NCBI GenBank assembly: GCA_002309215.1 | Contig: DBXG01000023.1 | Span: 10,086 to 74,085, forward strand | Reading direction: 5' to 3' | DNA: 64,000 nucleotides | Origin: Alphaproteobacteria bacterium UBA1218 | Lineage (GTDB): Bacteria > Pseudomonadota > Alphaproteobacteria > Rs-D84 | Part shown: positions 29,435-63,151 of the stretch, in pieces | How positions within the stretch are numbered: the first letter of the stretch is position 1 | Layout: each line of letters begins with the position of its first letter | Position numbers and translations under genes: made by a program | The notes under the pieces: generated by a model | Database searches by the model: none | Seen by the model: the letters and a program-made list of their open reading frames with translations, nothing else | Told to the model about the DNA's origin: nothing

Positions 29435-31917
29435 TCTCTGATTCTGGCTAAATCATCCCATTCATGATATTTTTCGCCGACAGATTCGCGGTATTCATAT
29501 TCTGCGACAGTATTTCCGCTGTATTGCCCGAATAGTTCTTTGACTTTCTGAACAGTATTATCAATCATTTCTTGTGCAACAGAATCAGAATATTCTAACA
29601 AATCTAAATCACCATTTTTCAATTGTAAAAACTGTAAAATCGGCGTCATAGACACATCTGTCATTTTAACAGGGAATCCCCCAGATTGCATTATATATCC
29701 CTCCAAAGGCAATTGTGGCATAGTTCCGTCTAGCAGTTGTTTTTTTGTTGGTGCACTGCCTGTCTTTATATCCATCACTGTGCCGTCCCAGATTACATCA
29801 GCACGTGCACGAACATTACGCCCTGCTATACGCACAGAACCTGCGACTTCCTTGGTTCCACCAGGTTTAAGATGTTCTTCTATGAATGGTGCAATTTCAC
29901 AAAATCTTTTGTGCCAAAAATAAAATAAAATCGAATTTTTATCCAAAATTTGTTTTGCCCGTAAATCCATTTCACGAATTAAAACTTCAGCATCAAATGT
30001 TTTTGCGTTTTCTATCGTTTCATGAACCAGATTTCCAAAATTACGCGCATCCGGCAAAATCCAATAATCGTCGATTGGGCGCAATCTTAAAATATGTCGT
30101 GCATAAAAAGCGTATGGATTATGTATCAATAATTCAAGTTCTGTCACATAAACATCAGTCCTGTCAATCGGTGGCGTTGGCGCAGAATAATCCAAAGGTT
30201 TTGATTCAATATCATCGCGTTTCCGCACAGATTCTAAAATGTCTTTGCCGTCTTTTATATCCCCAACCGCCACACGCACACGCGATAAAAATCTGGATTC
30301 TGTTGTTAGATTTCCACCTGCTTGTTTGCTACGCAACCAATACACTTCTGCCCCACAAGATAAATTCATAAAATCAAGTGCCATCAAAGAAACCTTACGA
30401 TTCGGGGATGGCAAGCCAATCTTGTTTGCTATCGCGCGTGGCAACCAAGCATTTTCGTAGCCAATAGATGGAAACATACCTTCGTTTAAACCAGTCAATA
30501 TAACAACATCAGCGGTTTGCATACGCGATTCAATTGTTCCCAAAACACACACATGACAATCGTATGAAACGTTTGGTCGAATCGAAACTGTACCAATCGC
30601 ATCTGCAATAAAAGCACGTGCATCATGAATATCCAACGCTATACCATTAGCACACAAAATATCGGACAAATTTTTTATCGCCATCCAAACTGGAACATCT
30701 GCCTCATTATCTGTATTAAACACTGGTTGAAAAACATTTTTATCTTTTTCATCAACAAAACCGACCAACATATTGAAAATATTATAATCAGCCTTGGCAT
30801 ACAAAGTTTCATATTCAGACTGATTATTTTCAATCCAAAAATCAAATAAATTCAGAATCACACGCCCAACATCAGTCATATTTCCAGATATACCAGACGA
30901 AAAATCTGCGTTTATATTTAATCGTGCCATTTCAGATTTTATTCTTTGATTTCCTGCTGCATCAGGCGTAATAATTAAAACAGATTTATTGTCCAATACA
31001 GCGCGTTTTGCGATGTTGGCCGCAACAGAGGCCTCTTCACTTTCACGCGCGCATTCTATTAAAACACAATTATTTAATGTATCTGAACAATATTGACCCA
31101 TATTCCCAAATGCAATATTCATAATATCCATACAATCACTATTTCCAACATCTATTGTTTCAACATCATCAACAGACAAACCAATACGTTCTAGAAACTT
31201 ATATTCTGAATTATATGGATTCGTGTCCAATATAAAATCTTCTGATGCCCCAGATATACGACCAGATAAAATTATTTTCCCATTTTTTCGTTTTGCAACC
31301 TCTGCCATTAAATCTGCCGTAGCCGGCACAGATGCAGTAGAACCACACACCACAACCAATTCATAATTATCTAATTTTTTTATCCACGAACGGATATCAT
31401 GATTGCGTTTAGCACTGACGGTTAGTTTATCTGTTGGCAGTTGTTTCAATATATCTAATATTCTTGCTTTGTTTTGGAAATGCGTTGCATACTTATCGTC
31501 TATCAATGATGCCCAATTTATATCACAAATACTTACACCTTCGTTTTCCAAATAATCTTGCATACGGACGAAATCGTGGGCTATGGGCAATGCAGTCGAT
31601 ATATTAACAACATTTGCGTCCATCGATAACAGTTTAGATAATATTACTACGCGTTCTTGGTTTGATATTGTATCTGGGGCATATTCTTCATCATCAACAT
31701 CTTCTGGACCAGACCCCAAAGGCACTAAAAGTGGTAAAATCACAGCATGACCAACTTTATCAACAATCATACGTTCAATGCTGCGTACAGCACGTCTGCT
31801 GGGTAAAAAAATTAAAACACGTGAAAAATCGTCACCATATTGCGAAATCATATTCCACAATGCGTCCAGCATATATACCGGATTAGAAACATTAAAAACA
31901 TTATTATTTGATGCCAA
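29431..31917 (-). CDS. AddB-like double-strand-break repair nuclease (PD-(D/E)XK, RecB-family C-terminus)
   Basis: 828 aa. N-terminus resembles alphaproteobacterial-type AddB (no Walker A). C-terminal ...DVIWDGTVMDIKTG is a PD-(D/E)XK nuclease motif. Confidence 0.5.
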   Translation of the reverse strand: MASNNNVFNVSNPVYMLDALWNMISQYGDDFSRVLIFLPSRRAVRSIERMIVDKVGHAVILPLLVPLGSGPEDVDDEEYAPDTISNQERVVILSKLLSMDANVVNISTALPIAHDFVRMQDYLENEGVSICDINWASLIDDKYATHFQNKARILDILKQLPTDKLTVSAKRNHDIRSWIKKLDNYELVVVCGSTASVPATADLMAEVAKRKNGKIILSGRISGASEDFILDTNPYNSEYKFLERIGLSVDDVETIDVGNSDCMDIMNIAFGNMGQYCSDTLNNCVLIECARESEEASVAANIAKRAVLDNKSVLIITPDAAGNQRIKSEMARLNINADFSSGISGNMTDVGRVILNLFDFWIENNQSEYETLYAKADYNIFNMLVGFVDEKDKNVFQPVFNTDNEADVPVWMAIKNLSDILCANGIALDIHDARAFIADAIGTVSIRPNVSYDCHVCVLGTIESRMQTADVVILTGLNEGMFPSIGYENAWLPRAIANKIGLPSPNRKVSLMALDFMNLSCGAEVYWLRSKQAGGNLTTESRFLSRVRVAVGDIKDGKDILESVRKRDDIESKPLDYSAPTPPIDRTDVYVTELELLIHNPYAFYARHILRLRPIDDYWILPDARNFGNLVHETIENAKTFDAEVLIREMDLRAKQILDKNSILFYFWHKRFCEIAPFIEEHLKPGGTKEVAGSVRIAGRNVRARADVIWDGTVMDIKTGSAPTKKQLLDGTMPQLPLEGYIMQSGGFPVKMTDVSMTPILQFLQLKNGDLDLLEYSDSVAQEMIDNTVQKVKELFGQYSGNTVAEYEYRESVGEKYHEWDDLARIRD

Positions 31918-55602: not shown

Positions 55603-57372
55603 TCAGTTTTTCTTTCTGATTTGTATATGAATATCACGCAATTGTTGTTCACTAACCTCATTCGGTGAACCCATTAACAAATCCTGACCGCGCTGATTGG
55701 CAGGGAAAGCAACGATTTCACGAACACTTTCGCCATCACCAAGGATTTCAGAAACCAATCTATCAATTCCAAACGCACATCCACCATGTGGTGGTGCACC
55801 ATATTTGAAAGCAGTATAAAGCGCACTGAAGTTCTTTTCAACTGCTTCAATTGGATAACCAGCAATATCGAAACACTTTTTCATGACTTCTGGATTATAA
55901 TTGCGTAATCCACCACTGCAAATTTCAAGACCATTTAACACCATATCAAATTGTGCCGCCTTGATAGAAAATGGGTCTTTCGTTGATAATTCTTCAAGTG
56001 TTGCCAGCGGATAAGAAAACGGATTATGCGTAAACATTGGCGCACCACCGCGTTCTTCATCTGGCTCAAAGAATGGGAAATTATCAACCCAACAAAATGC
56101 AAAATCGCGTTCATTAACCAAACCAAGGTCTGCACCAAGTTTGTTACGTAAACGACCAGCAGCCTTATTTGCATTATCAACATTATCACAAACAAAGAAC
56201 AATGATGAATTATCGCCTGCAATTTCATGCAACTTTGCAATTCTGTCTGCATCAAGTTTTTTTGCCACAGGTCCCTTTGCTTCATCAGCAAAAACAATAT
56301 AACCTAATCCACCAAGTCCCAATTCCTTAACAGCGTATTCGCCCAATTTATCAAACCAAGAACGTGGTTTATCAGCGCTGTTTGGTGCAGGTATCGCACG
56401 CACAACAGCACCGTTTTCAATTGCATTTGCAAAGATTCCAAAATCAGAACCGCGGAATATATCTGTGACATCAGATATCAAAATTGGATTACGCAAATCT
56501 GGTTTATCGCAACCGTATTTCAACATCGCATCATCAAAAGATATATGTGGAATTTCTGGATAAATATTTGCATCTGGTGCAAAAGTCCGAACCAATTCTG
56601 GAATAACCGCTTCGCCAACCGCCTGAATATCAGCCTGATCAACAAAAGACATTTCAATATCCAATTGGTAAAACTCCAGCAATCTGTCAGCACGCAAATC
56701 TTCATCACGAAAACATGGCGCAATCTGGAAATATCTATCGAACCCTGCAACCTGTAATAACTGCTTGAACATTTGTGGCGCCTGGGGCAAAGCATAAAAT
56801 TTGCCATGATGCAAACGTGAAGGAACCAAGAAACATCTGGCGCCTTCTGGGCTATCCGCAGTCAATAGTGGGGTCTGGAATTCAGAAAAACCCATATCCC
56901 ACATTTTATCACGCAACCATTTTATCATTTTGTTACGCATCAAAATACTGTGATGTAATTTTTCACGACGCAAATCCAAAAATCTGTATTGATAGCGTAA
57001 TTCTTCACTGGTGTCTTCATCACCAAAAACCTGGAAAGGCAAAACTTCAGAATTAGTTAAAACCTCCCATTTTTCTGATTTAATTTCAATATGGCCTGTT
57101 GGTATTTTATCGTTTATCGCTTCTTTATCTCTGGCAACAACGGTTCCTGTAATTTTAATAACAGATTCAGAACGAATCTTTTCCAGATTTTCATCGCCCC
57201 CATCAAAAACACATTGTGTAATACCATAATTATCACGCAAATCAACGAATAACAAAGAACCATGATCACGCTTACGATGCACCCAGCCAGATAAAGTGAC
57301 AGTTTCACCAACGTTTTTTTCAGTCAGTTCGCCACAAGTATGCGTTCTGTATTTTGATTTCAAAGACATCAT
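55603..57372 (-). CDS. aspS: aspartyl-tRNA synthetase, bacterial type
   Basis: About 590 aa. LAQSPQMFKQLL motif, GAD insertion domain, motif 3 GGCAFGIDRL. ATG at 57372 with AAGGG 8 nt upstream. Confidence 0.9.
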   Translation of the reverse strand: MMSLKSKYRTHTCGELTEKNVGETVTLSGWVHRKRDHGSLLFVDLRDNYGITQCVFDGGDENLEKIRSESVIKITGTVVARDKEAINDKIPTGHIEIKSEKWEVLTNSEVLPFQVFGDEDTSEELRYQYRFLDLRREKLHHSILMRNKMIKWLRDKMWDMGFSEFQTPLLTADSPEGARCFLVPSRLHHGKFYALPQAPQMFKQLLQVAGFDRYFQIAPCFRDEDLRADRLLEFYQLDIEMSFVDQADIQAVGEAVIPELVRTFAPDANIYPEIPHISFDDAMLKYGCDKPDLRNPILISDVTDIFRGSDFGIFANAIENGAVVRAIPAPNSADKPRSWFDKLGEYAVKELGLGGLGYIVFADEAKGPVAKKLDADRIAKLHEIAGDNSSLFFVCDNVDNANKAAGRLRNKLGADLGLVNERDFAFCWVDNFPFFEPDEERGGAPMFTHNPFSYPLATLEELSTKDPFSIKAAQFDMVLNGLEICSGGLRNYNPEVMKKCFDIAGYPIEAVEKNFSALYTAFKYGAPPHGGCAFGIDRLVSEILGDGESVREIVAFPANQRGQDLLMGSPNEVSEQQLRDIHIQIRKKN

Positions 57373-57646
57373 TTTCAACACCCTTTTTTGTCCCCCATAG
57401 CTTCAGCGAAAGGGGATTGTTTTCGGTGCCATAAAAATTTGCTATACGGCACCAATTCCAATCTTAAATCTCACAGGGGCGCTAGATTTTTTCGCGCGGT
57501 GCCACCCTGCCTTATTACTTTTTGTTTTTCATATAACACTACCCGGTTGTCAGTCGTATCAACGCATTACATAAAAACCAACGATATGGACAGATTCTAT
57601 ACCGAAAATATCACAAATGCAAGAAATAAACCATTAATCAAATATT
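57373..57646 (-). promoter_or_regulatory. T-box-riboswitch-like leader of aspS
   Basis: On the transcript strand: AGGG-UGGCACC-GCGCG-AAAAAAUCUA-GCGC-CCCU (plus coordinates about 57475-57508). This matches the T-box consensus AGGGUGGNACCGCG and the antiterminator helix A1 / 7-nt bulge / helix A2 layout. UGGC would pair with a GCCA 3' end (G73, as in tRNA-Asp). GAC codons lie in the 5' part (CGACUGACAA). Confidence 0.55.
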
Positions 57647-58204
57647 TTAATCAATATAATATACTCTGTTTGCTTTGCGTGGAATATTTGGAACATCGCC
57701 ATTCGGATAACCCAAAATACAATAACCAATGCCTTCCCAATTACCAGTAATACCCAAGGATTTTAAAATTTCTTGATATTCTGGTTTTTGAAAAGTTTCT
57801 TTGGCACGACATATCCAACAACTACCAACACCCAAAGCATGTGCAGCCAACATTAAATTACCCATAACCAAAGAACCGTCATATACGTAATCAACAAAAC
57901 CTTTATCTGCTACAACAACCAATACTACTGGCGCACCATAAAAAGGGTCTGCACCATCATATAAACCATCAAACTTAGCTTTTTCTGCTGATAATCTATC
58001 ACGTAAATCTTTATTTGTTACGACTATAATTTTTACTTCTTGTTGATTCATACCACTAGCCGCACACAACCCAACATCAACAATTTGATTGATTTTCTCT
58101 TGTTCAACCATATCTGGCTTATACTTGCGTATACTACGCCTAGTCTTAATAGATTCTAAAACAGCATTCATCAAAAAAACCTTTGTGCAAACCTTTTGTC
58201 CCAC
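57647..58204 (-). CDS. nitroreductase-family protein
   Basis: 185 aa. TRRSIRKY and the rest of the NAD(P)H-flavin nitroreductase fold. Confidence 0.75.
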   Translation of the reverse strand: MGQKVCTKVFLMNAVLESIKTRRSIRKYKPDMVEQEKINQIVDVGLCAASGMNQQEVKIIVVTNKDLRDRLSAEKAKFDGLYDGADPFYGAPVVLVVVADKGFVDYVYDGSLVMGNLMLAAHALGVGSCWICRAKETFQKPEYQEILKSLGITGNWEGIGYCILGYPNGDVPNIPRKANRVYYID

Positions 58205-58214
58205 TTCGTAAAAA

Positions 58215-58288
58215 GTGGTGCCCTAAGCAAGAATCGGACTTGCGACTCGTCCTTACCAAGGACGTGTTTTACCACTAGACTATTAGGG
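58215..58288 (-). tRNA. tRNA-Thr (anticodon GGU), slightly noncanonical
   Basis: Minus-strand cloverleaf. Acceptor GCCCTAA/TTAGGGC, anticodon stem CGTCC/GGACG with loop TTGGTAA, T stem GCAAG/CTTGC, A73 and CCA. Deviations are a C12:A23 mismatch and C55 in the T-loop (TCCGATT). Confidence 0.55.
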
Positions 58289-58324
58289 CAAGTGTGCCTA
58301 TTATAAACCCCAGATTCTGAATAA

Positions 58325-60570: not shown

Positions 60571-61572
60571 ATGACAATGAAAGTTTTACGCAAAGGTGCA
60601 CATTCAACCGTATTTATAGACGAAAATGAACCAGGAATTGTTATAAAAAAAGCGAACAATCCAGAAAATAGCAGTTATTTAAGTAAGCAACAATATGGAT
60701 ACGATGTAATAAATTCCATAAAAGCCCAAGGTAATGACATTGGTGTTATATTACCAGAACTTGTTGCAATAGATAACGAAGAAAAAACAGTTAAAGAAAA
60801 GATAATATCAGGGGAAACTTTTGATTCTGGCCAAGCAATAAACGAAAAATATTCTAGATTGTCTGCAAAACAAAAAGATTCTATTGCACAACAAATGGCA
60901 AGATTTTTGAACGCCATGCATTCCAGTTCAGAATGCAAACCGGCACAAGAATCCATAATCAATATGCAAAAAAGCGGCCCAGCAAATGCCGATGAAATTA
61001 TCGCTAAATTCGGTGGGTATTTGCCTAAAAACATAACAAACAGATTGAAACAGGCCGAAGCATATTTACACGCATCAGACAAATCTGACGAATTTATTGT
61101 TATGACCCACAAAGACCTAAGAACATCAAATGTAATGTATGATGCAAACATGAATAAACTAGCAGTTATTGATTTTGAGCTAGCAGGATTAGACAATGTA
61201 TATAATGATTTTATCGCTTCCGCACCAGGCAGTTCTATGCCTTGGGATTTTACCAAACGCGTAATTGATTTTTATAACCAAATACCAGACAAGAAATACC
61301 CAATAACGATAAACCCAGAAAAAGTACAAAATATGTTACTTTATGGGGTTATGCACGAATATGCACGCAACATAAGACCTAATGACAATACCCAAGAATA
61401 CCTTGTTCCCCTGGTGACACGTTTAACAAACAAGTTGATGGATATAACTGGAATAGATATTGATAAAAAAGCATCATACAGACAAGCAATCAGAACAACA
61501 CAAGACAAACAACGCCAAAAAAAACTTGAAAACACAAAAAATTATCCTATAATACGAGATGAAAGCCGATAA
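60571..61572 (+). CDS. APH/protein-kinase-like phosphotransferase
   Basis: 333 aa. Kinase N-lobe (VLRKGAHSTVF...IKK), catalytic HKDLRTSNVMYD and metal-binding IDFELAG. Confidence 0.6.
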   Translation: MTMKVLRKGAHSTVFIDENEPGIVIKKANNPENSSYLSKQQYGYDVINSIKAQGNDIGVILPELVAIDNEEKTVKEKIISGETFDSGQAINEKYSRLSAKQKDSIAQQMARFLNAMHSSSECKPAQESIINMQKSGPANADEIIAKFGGYLPKNITNRLKQAEAYLHASDKSDEFIVMTHKDLRTSNVMYDANMNKLAVIDFELAGLDNVYNDFIASAPGSSMPWDFTKRVIDFYNQIPDKKYPITINPEKVQNMLLYGVMHEYARNIRPNDNTQEYLVPLVTRLTNKLMDITGIDIDKKASYRQAIRTTQDKQRQKKLENTKNYPIIRDESR

Positions 61573-61834
61573 TCCACTAACAATGGGGAGGCGGAAGAAG
61601 AACGGTTGCAAAGTGATTTGCACTTACTAGAACTTCCCGGGATTGCCCGTCACAGCAAGAGACTCTTTAATGGTATGGCGAATCCAGCGAGAGTTAAAAA
61701 GGCAACATTGGCGACAGTGTTGCGAAACAAGGTGGCACCACGTTGTGTCATGTATTCTGACAAAAAGATATGCATGATATTTTACGTCCTTGTGTTCTTA
61801 TTAAGATAAATAACGAAACACAAAGGAGGTTAAA
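61573..61834 (+). promoter_or_regulatory. T-box-like leader with SD-sequestering alternative helix upstream of aspS2
   Basis: AAGG-UGGCACC-ACG...CGU-CCUU (61729-61791) has the same A1/bulge/A2 layout as the aspS leader. CCUUGUGUU (61788-61796) is complementary to AACACAAAGG (61817-61826), which overlaps the SD AAAGGAGG. GAC lies in the upstream stem region (GAGACUC, 61659-61665). Confidence 0.45.
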
Positions 61835-63151
61835 ATGTCAATGATAAGAACGCATATCGCCGAAATTCTACAAAAGATTGGCGAAACAATAACAATCAAG
61901 GGTCACGCACAAACAATTCGCGAACAATCAAGTATTGCGTTTATTGTCCTGCGTGAAATAACCGGAACCGTTCAATGTGTCGTTGAAAAGGGTTCTGCTG
62001 CTTTTGATTTGGTAAAAGAAATCACAACAGAATCTGTTATATCTGTGACAGGTAAAGTTGTAGAAACGAAAAGCACAGAATCTGGATTTGAAATTCAGAC
62101 ATCTGAAATAAAAATTATATCCTTGGCAGAGGCAACACCGATACCTGTCACACAAAAAGGCAGCGTAGAAGTGACTCCTGAAAAATCGCAAGATTGGCGT
62201 TTTTTGTCGCTCCGTAGCCAACGTGGCGCAACGATAATGCGTGCATTATCTGCGATGACTGTTGGATATCATGAATACCTGATTAAACAAGGTTTCATTG
62301 AAATTCAAACACCCAAGATTATGGCAACACCATCAGAATCCAAGGCAGAATTATTCAAAATGGAATACTTTGGTCAAACTGCATACTTGGCACAATCACC
62401 ACAATTATTCAAACAAATGGCGATTGCGTCTGGGCTTGAACGCGTGTTTGAGGTTGCCCCTGCTTTTCGTGCAGATAAATCTTTTACTACGCGTCACGCA
62501 ACTGAATTCACATCTTTCGATGCAGAAATGGGATACATTGAAAGTTTTGATGAAGTTATGCACGAACTAGAAAGCGCGATTTCGTATATGCTGACATCCA
62601 TCAAAAAGACATGTGGCAAGGAAATCGAAAAGTATTTTGGTATAACCGAATTCCAGTTGAAAAAGCCGATTCTGCGCATCACAATGGCAGAAGCCAAAGA
62701 AATCTTGCGCGAAATAGGCTGTGCATCTGAAGAGCCAGACATTACAACAGCCGAAGAAAAAGCACTTGGCGATTATGTCAAAGAAAAATATGGTTCTGAT
62801 TTTGTATTCGTGACCGAATGGCCATGGGAATCACGCCCATTCTATCATAAAAAAGCGATAGACAAACACGGACATGAAATATCAGTATCTGCCGACTTAC
62901 TTTACAAAGGCGTCGAAATTGTGACCTGCGCCCAACGCGAAGAATCCTATACAAAACTGTGTGAACAGTTAAAAGGCAAAGGATTACACCAAGAGGGCTT
63001 ACAATGGTATTTGGATTGTTTCCGGTACGGCATGCCACCACATGGTGGTTGGGGCTTTGGTGGTGCAAGATTTATCAAGCAGTTGCTGGAATTGCCAACG
63101 ATCAGAGAATCAACATTCCTGTTCCGCGGACCATCACGCTTGATGCCATAA
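61835..63151 (+). CDS. aspartyl-tRNA synthetase, archaeal/eukaryal type (AspRS2; possibly non-discriminating)
   Basis: 438 aa with no GAD insertion. LAQSPQLFKQM...FRADKSFTTRHATEF closely follows the archaeal AspRS signature (QSPQLYKQ, FRAE..TRHL.EF). Motif 3 is GMPPHGGWGFGGAR. Confidence 0.75.
   Translation: MSMIRTHIAEILQKIGETITIKGHAQTIREQSSIAFIVLREITGTVQCVVEKGSAAFDLVKEITTESVISVTGKVVETKSTESGFEIQTSEIKIISLAEATPIPVTQKGSVEVTPEKSQDWRFLSLRSQRGATIMRALSAMTVGYHEYLIKQGFIEIQTPKIMATPSESKAELFKMEYFGQTAYLAQSPQLFKQMAIASGLERVFEVAPAFRADKSFTTRHATEFTSFDAEMGYIESFDEVMHELESAISYMLTSIKKTCGKEIEKYFGITEFQLKKPILRITMAEAKEILREIGCASEEPDITTAEEKALGDYVKEKYGSDFVFVTEWPWESRPFYHKKAIDKHGHEISVSADLLYKGVEIVTCAQREESYTKLCEQLKGKGLHQEGLQWYLDCFRYGMPPHGGWGFGGARFIKQLLELPTIRESTFLFRGPSRLMP

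Follow-up and report, generated by a model that had tools for sequence, protein, structure and literature searches.

A compact T-box variant in the leader of an alphaproteobacterial aspartyl-tRNA synthetase gene

The aspS locus

The DNA analyzed here (the window, 64,000 nucleotides [nt]; all coordinates refer to it) comes from an uncultured gut alphaproteobacterium and carries aspS, the gene for a bacterial-type aspartyl-tRNA synthetase (AspRS). Our subject is the leader of this gene, read on the minus strand, and the T-box string that it holds within the 274-nt gap separating aspS from a nitroreductase-like open reading frame (ORF). As set out below, the leader is a T-box variant, both in structure and in taxonomic position, and it probably works as a tRNA-responsive riboswitch of minimal, undescribed architecture that controls translation initiation. 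The following genes and signals frame it:

55603-57372, minus strand: aspS, bacterial-type aspartate--tRNA ligase, 589 amino acids (NF001750, 725.9 bits against a cutoff of 443)
57370-57372, minus strand: AUG start codon of aspS
57594-57622, minus strand: putative promoter, TTGCAT (57617-57622) and TAGAAT (57594-57599) with a 17-nt spacer
57647-58204, minus strand: nitroreductase-like ORF, with its stop at 57647

To judge from the position of the putative promoter, transcription of the leader would start near 57587. A TTGnnn-N16-18-TAnnnT arrangement is found 23-32 nt upstream of the K-turn (described below) in 28 of 43 orthologous leaders. The TTGCAT/TAGAAT pair was not among the matches of a consensus promoter scan of the window.

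An AspRS protein scan, restricted to one genome per species, returned 44 loci at 66-95% identity, from gut or rumen metagenome-assembled genomes (MAGs) labelled Alphaproteobacteria or Candidatus Enterousia. Outside this clade, the closest AspRS relatives are those of other Alphaproteobacteria (36 loci, 53-58% identity). Since the relatives on both levels are alphaproteobacterial, the synthetase is a vertically inherited alphaproteobacterial gene, and the host of the leader is an alphaproteobacterium (Candidatus Enterousia). Two MAGs (L040 and L042; L numbers are our locus handles) bear the label "uncultured Muribaculaceae" despite their alphaproteobacterial aspS and leader; these contigs were probably mis-binned.

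Conservation of the T-box core

The string AGGGUGGCACCGCGCGAAAAAAUCUAGCGCCCCU, i.e., AGGGUGGCACCGCG…GCGCCCCU, lies at 57475-57508 on the minus strand. Its first part, AGGGUGGCACCGCG (57495-57508), matches the conserved T-box sequence AGGGUGGNACCGCG, as had been recognized in a preliminary description made from the letters of the window. The string goes well beyond what chance would produce: even a looser pattern, GGTGGNACC, has a chance expectation of 0.62 occurrences in the window; two further sites that fit it, at 29854 (minus strand) and 49771 (plus strand), are inside long ORFs and were discarded as coding or chance matches.

Comparison of orthologous loci shows the core to be invariant. 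The 13-mer GGGTGGNACCGCG (GGGUGGCACCGCG) is present upstream of aspS at all 43 Enterousia-clade loci for which upstream sequence exists, GGGTGGCACCGCG being positioned 60-131 nt from the gene in each, and the core is invariant also at 80 metagenome loci (79 of them genuine). At 35 other alphaproteobacterial loci, no T-box core occupies the position upstream of aspS. The preliminary description had made its case depend on conservation of an AGGG-UGGCACC-GCG core in related leaders, and this is what the comparison yields.

At the Rfam gathering threshold, only tRNAs are found in the window, and no T-box at 19 orthologous loci. A permissive scan of 57300-57720 with the T-box model RF00230 produced a full-length local match of 25.5 bits (E=7.6e-4 for a 421-nt search), far below the gathering score of 93; standard annotation therefore misses the aspS T-box. 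In this alignment (cmscan), posterior probability is high at the antiterminator end, and of the 78 positions that the model has in Stem I, 61 are deleted. A covariance model of our own, built from the clade alignment, gives exactly one match per clade locus (76-106 bits) and none in outgroup loci; it also finds the leader of L044, which was outside the training set (40.4 bits, E=5e-8).

Architecture of the sensor

The elements of the sensor are as follows:

57532-57571, minus strand: ultrashort Stem I, with basal helix 57564-57571 paired to 57532-57539
57559-57563, minus strand: K-turn-like GA motif (L1-L3 plus GA), opposite UA at 57540-57541
57555-57557 paired to 57543-57545, minus strand: NC helix, 3 base pairs (bp)
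57546-57554, minus strand: 9-nt terminal specifier loop ACUGACAAC, with GAC at 57549-57551 and a purine (A) at 57548
57510-57531, minus strand: A-rich linker, with AAG (RAG-like) at 57518-57520, UAAU (all that is left of Stem III) at 57514-57517 and AA at 57512-57513
57474-57509, minus strand: antiterminator/antisequestrator, A1 being 57505-57509 paired to 57474-57478 (CAGGG/CCCUG)
57498-57504, minus strand: T-box bulge UGGCACC, invariant
57494-57497 paired to 57479-57482, minus strand: A2, with its loop at 57483-57493

The structure was tested on an alignment of 44 leaders, with partners slid by 1-3 columns and shuffled alignments as controls. Paired cells amount to 89.3%, as compared to 35-52% in the slid controls. 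Double-sided changes number 170 against 60 +/- 6.7 in the shuffles, none of 500 shuffles reaching 170, and they affect 16 of the 23 base pairs. The same four helices were returned by a blind run of RNAalifold. Taken at the level of sequence comparison, these paired changes speak for a compact sensor about 100 nt long.

In Stem I, all eight basal pairs and two of the three NC pairs covary (80% and 96% of cells paired, respectively). U20, G21, A22 and A41 of the alignment are invariant. The K-turn consists of a 3-nt bulge followed by G21 A22 opposite G40 A41, with a variable non-Watson-Crick 3b/3n position; its assignment comes from sequence and secondary structure, and the flanking C and NC helices covary. 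On the 3′ strand about 90% of orthologs have GA; the window and L017 have UA. Between Stem I and A1 runs an unpaired linker of about 22-27 nt in which A61, A62 and G63 hardly vary and A68 and A69 do not vary at all. In the preliminary drawing of the antiterminator, the bulge UGGCACC and the A2 helix GCGC/GCGC were correct; A1, drawn as AGGG/CCCU, is in fact the 5-bp helix CAGGG/CCCUG. A1 is 100% paired and has two covarying pairs. The A2 core is invariant and the A2 extension covaries.

Immediately past A1, at 57461-57470, there is a sequence (UAAGAUUU; AGAUUU in the window) that complements the A2 loop (AAAAUCU[U]A). The two form a hairpin in the predicted OFF fold of L001-L004. This complementarity belongs to the subfamily of the window and is not conserved in others.

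Specifier codon and tRNA identity

The preliminary description had pointed to GAC triplets in CGACUGACAA as possible specifiers. The second of these (57549-57551) turns out to be the conserved specifier; the first straddles the boundary between helix and loop. A Stem I with its specifier can thus be recovered by comparing leaders, in the form of an ultrashort K-turn hairpin that carries the codon in its terminal loop rather than in an internal loop. Positions 4-6 of this loop read RAC in 101 of 103 distinct sensors (GAC in 69, AAC in 32), the other two being misregistrations of the pattern, and position 7 is a purine in 101 of 103. GAC and AAC interchange between near-identical leaders, such as L008 (AAC) and L009 (GAC). 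Every sensor has UGGC in the bulge, which therefore predicts a G73 discriminator; bacterial tRNA-Asp and tRNA-Asn carry G73. The alternation between GAC and AAC fits an AspRS that serves both tRNAs, i.e., a non-discriminating enzyme of the indirect Asn pathway. The loop can also be read as two tandem triplets, RAC-RAY, the second being AAC, GAC or AAU in 89 of the 103 distinct sensors.

The identity of the triplet bears on the idea that the leader is a protein operator, bound either by AspRS itself through tRNA mimicry, in the manner of E. coli thrS, or by a K-turn-binding protein. A K-turn-like motif is indeed present, and YbxF/L7Ae-family K-turn-binding proteins are known on T-box Stem I. 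The loop, however, displays a codon (GAC/AAC) and not an anticodon (GUC/GUU), so that it complements the tRNA instead of imitating it, and the second conserved block is the NCCA-binding bulge of T-boxes. A tRNA-mimic operator was rejected on the first of these grounds, and protein operators as a whole appear extremely improbable.

T-box parts that are missing

Several constituents of standard T-boxes are absent from the aspS leader. Stem I ends at its 9-nt loop, the alignment showing neither a further helix nor a distal platform, and no Stem II or IIA/B pseudoknot is found in it. In some 115 of 116 leaders Stem III is replaced by about 4 nt, the purines flanking it (AAG…AA) being retained. The only leader with a Stem III (AAAGG-Stem III-CAAAG) is that of L044, which represents the most divergent lineage of this synthetase (AspRS1 hereafter, to set it apart from a second one). 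Finally, the terminal pair of A2 is G-C in 116 of 116 leaders and not G•U (CGC/CCC here versus CGU/CCC in the Rfam consensus). Because the score threshold is not reached, and because the distal platform, Stem III and the G•U pair are wanting, the leader is filed as a variant and not as a standard member of the family.

In solved complexes, the RAG/RRRxG…AA purines on either side of Stem III make contact with A76 and the tRNA's minor groove (PMC11297988, PMC7583486). The G•U pair at the end of A2 is part of the T-box consensus and has been assigned the leading role in sensing the aminoacyl group sterically. In the current view, the tRNA 3′ end cannot be bound without Stem III, and Stem II and IIA/B become essential once Stem I is truncated. 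Either the aspS-leader family contradicts these generalizations or it works differently. We found no report of T-boxes devoid of Stem III in the searchable literature, which does not include subscription journals.

These absences raise the possibility that the RNA binds tRNA-Asp/Asn without reading its charge, sensing total tRNA or using tRNA as a folding chaperone. Rejection of aminoacyl-tRNA is tied in the literature to both Stem III, which some 115 of 116 leaders lack, and the G•U pair, replaced by G-C in all 116. Against this, the leaders keep, with hardly any variation, the RAG and AA purines that touch A76 and the minor groove, the UGGC-ACC bulge does not vary, and a sensor on an aminoacyl-tRNA synthetase gene that ignored charge would offer no obvious regulatory benefit. 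In addition, competition of the Shine-Dalgarno (SD) sequence or of a downstream hairpin arm (arm3, see below) with the tRNA 3′ end for the seven bulge nucleotides could disfavor an esterified end. On balance we regard a charge-blind RNA as unlikely and prefer to see in the leader a sensor of uncharged tRNA.

Expression platform

A scan for intrinsic terminators found none on the aspS strand of the window, and about 115 of 116 leaders have none either. Transcription attenuation is therefore rejected as the main mechanism. The preliminary description had likewise seen no hairpin-plus-U-run after the element; its guess that the platform may be translational is supported by the SD-sequestering folds predicted below. 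Downstream of A1 the window contains:

57425-57453, minus strand: relay hairpin, with arm3 GGUGCCGUA (57445-57453) and arm4 UAUGGCACC (57425-57433)
57391-57416, minus strand: extra hairpin UCCCCUUUCGCUGAAGCUAUGGGGGA between arm4 and the SD, in a single copy in the window
57378-57384, minus strand: SD sequence AGGGUGU

Arm3 contains GGUGCCG, the complement of the bulge UGGCACC, and arm4 is a look-alike of the bulge. The extra hairpin is missing from most orthologs; L013 has a similar insert. An SD of the GGUGY type occurs in only 1 of 51 other genes of the window.

Folding 45 leaders with and without constraints revealed no uniform switch, and the leaders were analyzed class by class. The simplest situation is found in about 14 leaders (including L039, L042, L044, L106 and L160) that lack the relay hairpin and have AGGUGYY as SD; in L160, the SD (GGUGCCA) is the exact complement of the bulge. 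In this direct class, predicted bulge:SD energies range from -6.4 to -11.9 kcal/mol, as compared to -2.6 +/- 1.8 at 51 other window genes. The unconstrained minimum free energy (MFE) structure has the SD:bulge helix in 12 of the 14, and the mean advantage of that fold over the antiterminator fold is 2.2 kcal/mol. With the antiterminator imposed, predicted SD accessibility is 0.45, as compared to 0.19 for the free leader.

The remaining large class, about 87 leaders including that of the window, has the hairpin. Arm3 reads GGUGCC in 74 of 79 distinct hairpin-bearing leaders (at most 0.23 bit per position), with the reservation that its positions 1-4 belonged to the search pattern; among the hairpin leaders of the genome set, only L017 fails that pattern. 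All but one of the 79 arm3 copies can pair 7/7 with the bulge. Arm4 varies to about 1 bit, and the conservation of arm3 far exceeds what hairpin formation needs. Two alternatives to the antiterminator (ON) fold were modelled. In OFF-a, the classical one, the antiterminator 3′ strand (UAGCGCCC in the window) would pair with the SD as in a classical sequestrator, arm3:arm4 making up its apical part. In OFF-b, the relay, arm3 would capture the bulge, and the arm4 thus freed (GGCACC) would pair with the SD (GGGUGU). The predicted ensemble energies are:

Leaders with GGUGY SD (n=27): ON -30.9, OFF-a -28.8, OFF-b -31.4 kcal/mol
Leaders with GGGR SD (n=60): ON -34.6, OFF-a -34.5, OFF-b -33.6 kcal/mol
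The window (n=1): ON -44.8, OFF-a -44.5, OFF-b -43.3 kcal/mol

Across the hairpin class, predicted SD accessibility is 0.38-0.40 in the ON fold, 0.00-0.01 in OFF-a and 0.15 in OFF-b. The predicted partner of the SD tracks its sequence: GGUGY pairs with GGCACC-type segments (bulge or arm4), GGGR with the GCCCCU 3′ strand. These models make translational control through SD sequestration, with near-degenerate folds, the most likely mode of action. As to the window, the sequence conservation of arm3 favors the relay as its OFF fold.

A T-box sensor might instead have a transcriptional output, through Rho-dependent or otherwise non-canonical termination in the A-rich leader. The stretch from A1 to the SD, which in the window measures about 100 nt, is long, rich in A and contains C, and Rho might in principle load there; the OFF states are not strongly favored in the hairpin class; and one distant relative, L119 (see below), does use an intrinsic terminator. 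Yet, besides the lack of a hairpin-plus-U-run in the window and nearly all other leaders, termination does not require that the SD or arm3 be complementary to the bulge, and a GGUGY SD is rare in this genome. Furthermore, a second T-box of the same genome has an explicit SD sequestrator. We therefore consider a transcriptional output quite improbable and retain translational control as the working interpretation.

A second T-box in the same genome

The second element (element 2; the aspS leader is element 1) precedes another synthetase gene, aspS2, on the opposite strand:

61526-61837, plus strand: element 2 leader, with the T-box at 61560-61834 (RF00230, 27.8 bits, E=1.5e-4 in a local scan)
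61526-61553, plus strand: promoter TTGAAA/TATAAT
61565-61592, plus strand: Stem I with K-turn and a 7-nt loop, CUAACAA, in which AAC (Asn) is at 61579-61581
61728-61792, plus strand: A1, bulge (61733-61739) and A2
61788-61796 paired to 61817-61826, plus strand: 12-bp sequestrator, CCUUGUGUU with AACACAAAGG; the SD is at 61822-61829 and the AUG at 61835
61835-63151, plus strand: aspS2, archaeal/non-discriminating-type aspartate--tRNA(Asn) ligase, 438 amino acids (NF003483, 459.8 bits)

The string GGTGGCACC in this leader is at 61731-61739 on the plus strand. Element 2 has Stem II purines (GGAAGAAGAAC), an F-box-like CGGGAUUGCCCGUCA (IIA/B) and a Stem III set between AAAAAGG and GAAA. Compensatory changes affect both Stem I and Stem III in the orthologous leaders of L039, L165 and L166; the sequestrator is conserved, and the consensus fold picks it. 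By its sequence features, element 2 is a canonical class-II translational T-box. The genome thus has two AspRS paralogs about 4 kb apart, each behind a T-box of different architecture. The covariance model of element 1 has no match at element 2; the two are therefore not simple copies of one another.

Homologs of AspRS2 are widespread in the same lineage, and their leaders differ in completeness. The full architecture is found in L165, L166 and L168. That of L169 is without Stem III, retains Stem II and has a GGUGU SD. The leaders of L167, L170 and L124 are of the minimal, element 1 type, and at L167 and L170 aspS2 also shares the tRNA-Met/tRNA-Thr neighborhood of aspS1 loci. This arrangement, as far as sequence can tell, suggests that one AspRS type took the place of the other in situ, behind a retained leader.

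Recurrence of the minimal architecture on a second, unrelated AspRS gene (L124, L167, L170) is also pertinent to whether the aspS leader might be an evolutionary relic, or a constitutive structure serving, for instance, mRNA stability, without any switching. The antiterminator fold being the MFE structure in many leaders, and the unremarkable z-score of the single sequence, would agree with such a role. They have to be set against this recurrence, against compensatory changes in four helices, and against the invariance of the 13-nt core and of the RAC-purine motif over a range in which AspRS diverged to 62-66% identity and the flanks were scrambled. A leader that does not switch is accordingly very unlikely, and we continue to treat element 1 as a regulatory sensor.

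On the Hadza gut contig L168 (1-2511, plus strand), two class IIb synthetase genes lie next to each other. The second is preceded by a leader that resembles element 2, with an AAC loop but a UGGU bulge, predicting an A73 tRNA.

Distribution of the minimal leader

The pattern used to scan metagenomes fixed the K-turn, the RAG…AA spacing and the T-box core and left the loop and the discriminator position free. RAC was nevertheless found at loop positions 4-6 in 79 of 80 loci and UGGC in 80 of 80, and nearly all loci with enough downstream sequence run into a bacterial-type aspS. The class is therefore dedicated to Asp/Asn. One candidate, L117 (loop GACCATCTC, GC-rich, beside a nitrite-reductase gene), was dismissed as a false positive. 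In L124, the minimal leader stands before an archaeal-type Asp-tRNA(Asn) ligase gene. Three loci (L112, 2288-3142, minus strand; L129; and L157, 664-1500, plus strand) have an S51-like ORF of about 280 codons between the minimal T-box and aspS. Its similarity to PepE (aspartyl dipeptidase) and to cyanophycinase is weak and stays under the curated cut-off; the arrangement suggests an Asp-supply gene in the same regulon.

L119 (2446-4086, plus strand) combines the same short Stem I (GAC) and core with a longer linker. Here a classical intrinsic terminator, CGCCCCU…AGGGGCG followed by AUUUUU, is built from the same 3′ strand, and the element therefore behaves as a T-box expression platform. The AspRS of L119 (463 amino acids, bacterial-type) matches its model in two stretches, the insertion domain possibly missing.

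The aspS leader is syntenic with a tRNA-Thr(GGU) gene (58216-58289, minus strand, in the window), often with tRNA-Met close by. At six loci (L007, L009, L014, L024, L031 and L040), the 3′ end of tRNA-Thr is at most 140 nt upstream of Stem I, making co-transcription possible. The nitroreductase-like gene intervenes between the two in the window.

Discussion

We consider it probable that the leader is a tRNA-responsive T-box acting on translation initiation. A bolder reading, put forward tentatively as a serious candidate, is that a T-box of about 100 nt, without any of the accessory tRNA contacts (elbow platform, Stem II/IIA-B, Stem III, G•U sensor), senses tRNA-Asp/Asn and that its bulge doubles as an anti-SD sequence. 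In the probable scheme, the anticodon of tRNA-Asp (GUC) would pair with the GAC specifier in the terminal loop of the K-turn hairpin; in relatives with an AAC specifier, the expected ligand is tRNA-Asn (GUU). The uncharged 3′ end, G73-C-C-A, would pair with UGGC of the 7-nt bulge, and these pairings, aided by the RAG...AA purines, would keep the A1/A2 antisequestrator together. When uncharged tRNA is lacking, the leader is predicted to refold in such a way that the SD becomes paired. In the simplest relatives the partner of the SD (AGGUGYY) would be the bulge itself, the tRNA 3′ end and the SD competing for the same seven nucleotides. In the window, it would be either arm4 or the antiterminator 3′ strand, both OFF folds being predicted to differ from the ON fold by no more than about 1.5 kcal/mol. 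The net outcome would be an increase in AspRS when charged tRNA-Asp/Asn runs short. The analysis shows the conservation of the sequence, the covariation of four helices, the pattern of specifiers, the lack of a terminator and a predicted bistability; the binding of tRNA, the discrimination of its charge and the choice of OFF fold are the parts of this scheme that we infer.

A number of observations weigh against this scheme. Some concern the sensor. Besides the low RF00230 score, the single-sequence fold of the window sensor is unexceptional (z = -0.47) and finds the antiterminator without Stem I, which is therefore drawn from comparative data. No tRNA-Asp or tRNA-Asn gene is present in the window or at about 85 loci, leaving G73 a prediction for this lineage. 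Lacking Stem III and the G•U pair, the leader may discriminate charge differently or weakly. Others concern the switch. In most leaders of the hairpin class the antiterminator fold is already the MFE structure, leaving no strong default-OFF state. The arm4:SD complementarity is modestly above controls (-8.0 as compared to -5.4 for shuffled and -7.2 for non-cognate sequences). The bulge is invariant, so that its pairing with arm3 or with the SD is beyond the reach of covariation. And five leaders (L033, L034, L099, L102 and L116) lack the relay hairpin as well as a GGUG SD; in these the SD, AAAGGGACC, is about 23 nt past A1, and the candidate sequestrator measures 3-5 bp. One of the five, L033, has an SD look-alike (AGGGA/GUCUC) in its A2 extension.

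Among known systems, a close parallel is with the ileS T-boxes of actinobacteria (Mycobacterium tuberculosis, M. smegmatis, Nocardia farcinica; "class II" in TBDB). They share with element 1 an ultrashort Stem I without the elbow-binding distal platform, a specifier in the terminal loop above a K-turn, the bulge and the A1/A2 antisequestrator; control through SD accessibility (as predicted for element 1) and a small energy gap between folds are further likenesses. Near-degenerate folds have been described for the M. tuberculosis ileS T-box. Element 2 fits this class closely, having Stem II purines, an F-box-like IIA/B, RAG-Stem III-AA and an SD sequestrator derived from the A1 3′ strand. Element 1 differs from it in lacking Stem II, the IIA/B pseudoknot, Stem III and the A2 G•U wobble, in its Asp/Asn specificity, in its alphaproteobacterial host and, at least in part of the family, in a predicted anti-SD made by the bulge or its relay copy.

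The glyQS T-boxes of Bacillus, Geobacillus and Oceanobacillus resemble element 1 in having no Stem II or IIA/B and a short linker between Stem I and the discriminator. Unlike element 1, they act on transcription and possess an intrinsic terminator, together with the G•U pair, Stem III and a long Stem I that bears an interdigitated T-loop platform. Going by titles of 2012 and 2013 under the name of Saad et al., Clostridium acetobutylicum reportedly has an Asn T-box on an operon for a non-discriminating AspRS and GatCAB, and a "two-codon" T-box. The former would parallel the AAC specifiers found on aspS, and the latter recalls the tandem RAC-RAY; at the level of titles, the similarity is a lead and not a test. 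The C. acetobutylicum T-boxes are said to be canonical, long, transcriptional ones of the Firmicutes kind.

In Proteobacteria, the only cases in the searchable literature are the leuA T-boxes of Deltaproteobacteria (Geobacter, Pelobacter), found in 2 of 125 proteobacterial genomes (PMC2494555). These are described as "typical" T-boxes; they sit on a biosynthetic gene, and their hosts form another bacterial class than the host of element 1. The same literature, subscription journals lying outside it, holds no earlier report of an alphaproteobacterial T-box. The model search for class II (translational) T-boxes in TBDB covered Actinobacteria only; this, together with the Rfam gathering threshold, makes alphaproteobacterial T-boxes invisible to standard annotation.

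The elements described here extend the range of T-boxes to the Alphaproteobacteria, namely to gut and rumen Candidatus Enterousia and relatives. A family of more than 100 distinct sequences that is under purifying selection without Stem III, Stem II/IIA-B or the G•U pair challenges structural models of T-box function: either those parts are dispensable in some contexts, or the family senses tRNA differently. What constitutes a minimal T-box becomes directly testable with an RNA of about 100 nt. Within one lineage, there is an evolutionary series from full through Stem III-less to minimal leaders, with direct, relayed and classical SD sequestration and one terminator form, and the flips between Asp and Asn specifiers bear on the regulation of indirect Asn-tRNA synthesis. 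If the bulge does serve as anti-SD, the aspS leader would define a minimal functional T-box and a new expression platform, and T-boxes would reach into the Alphaproteobacteria, where, on a non-discriminating AspRS system, their specifiers would alternate between Asp and Asn.

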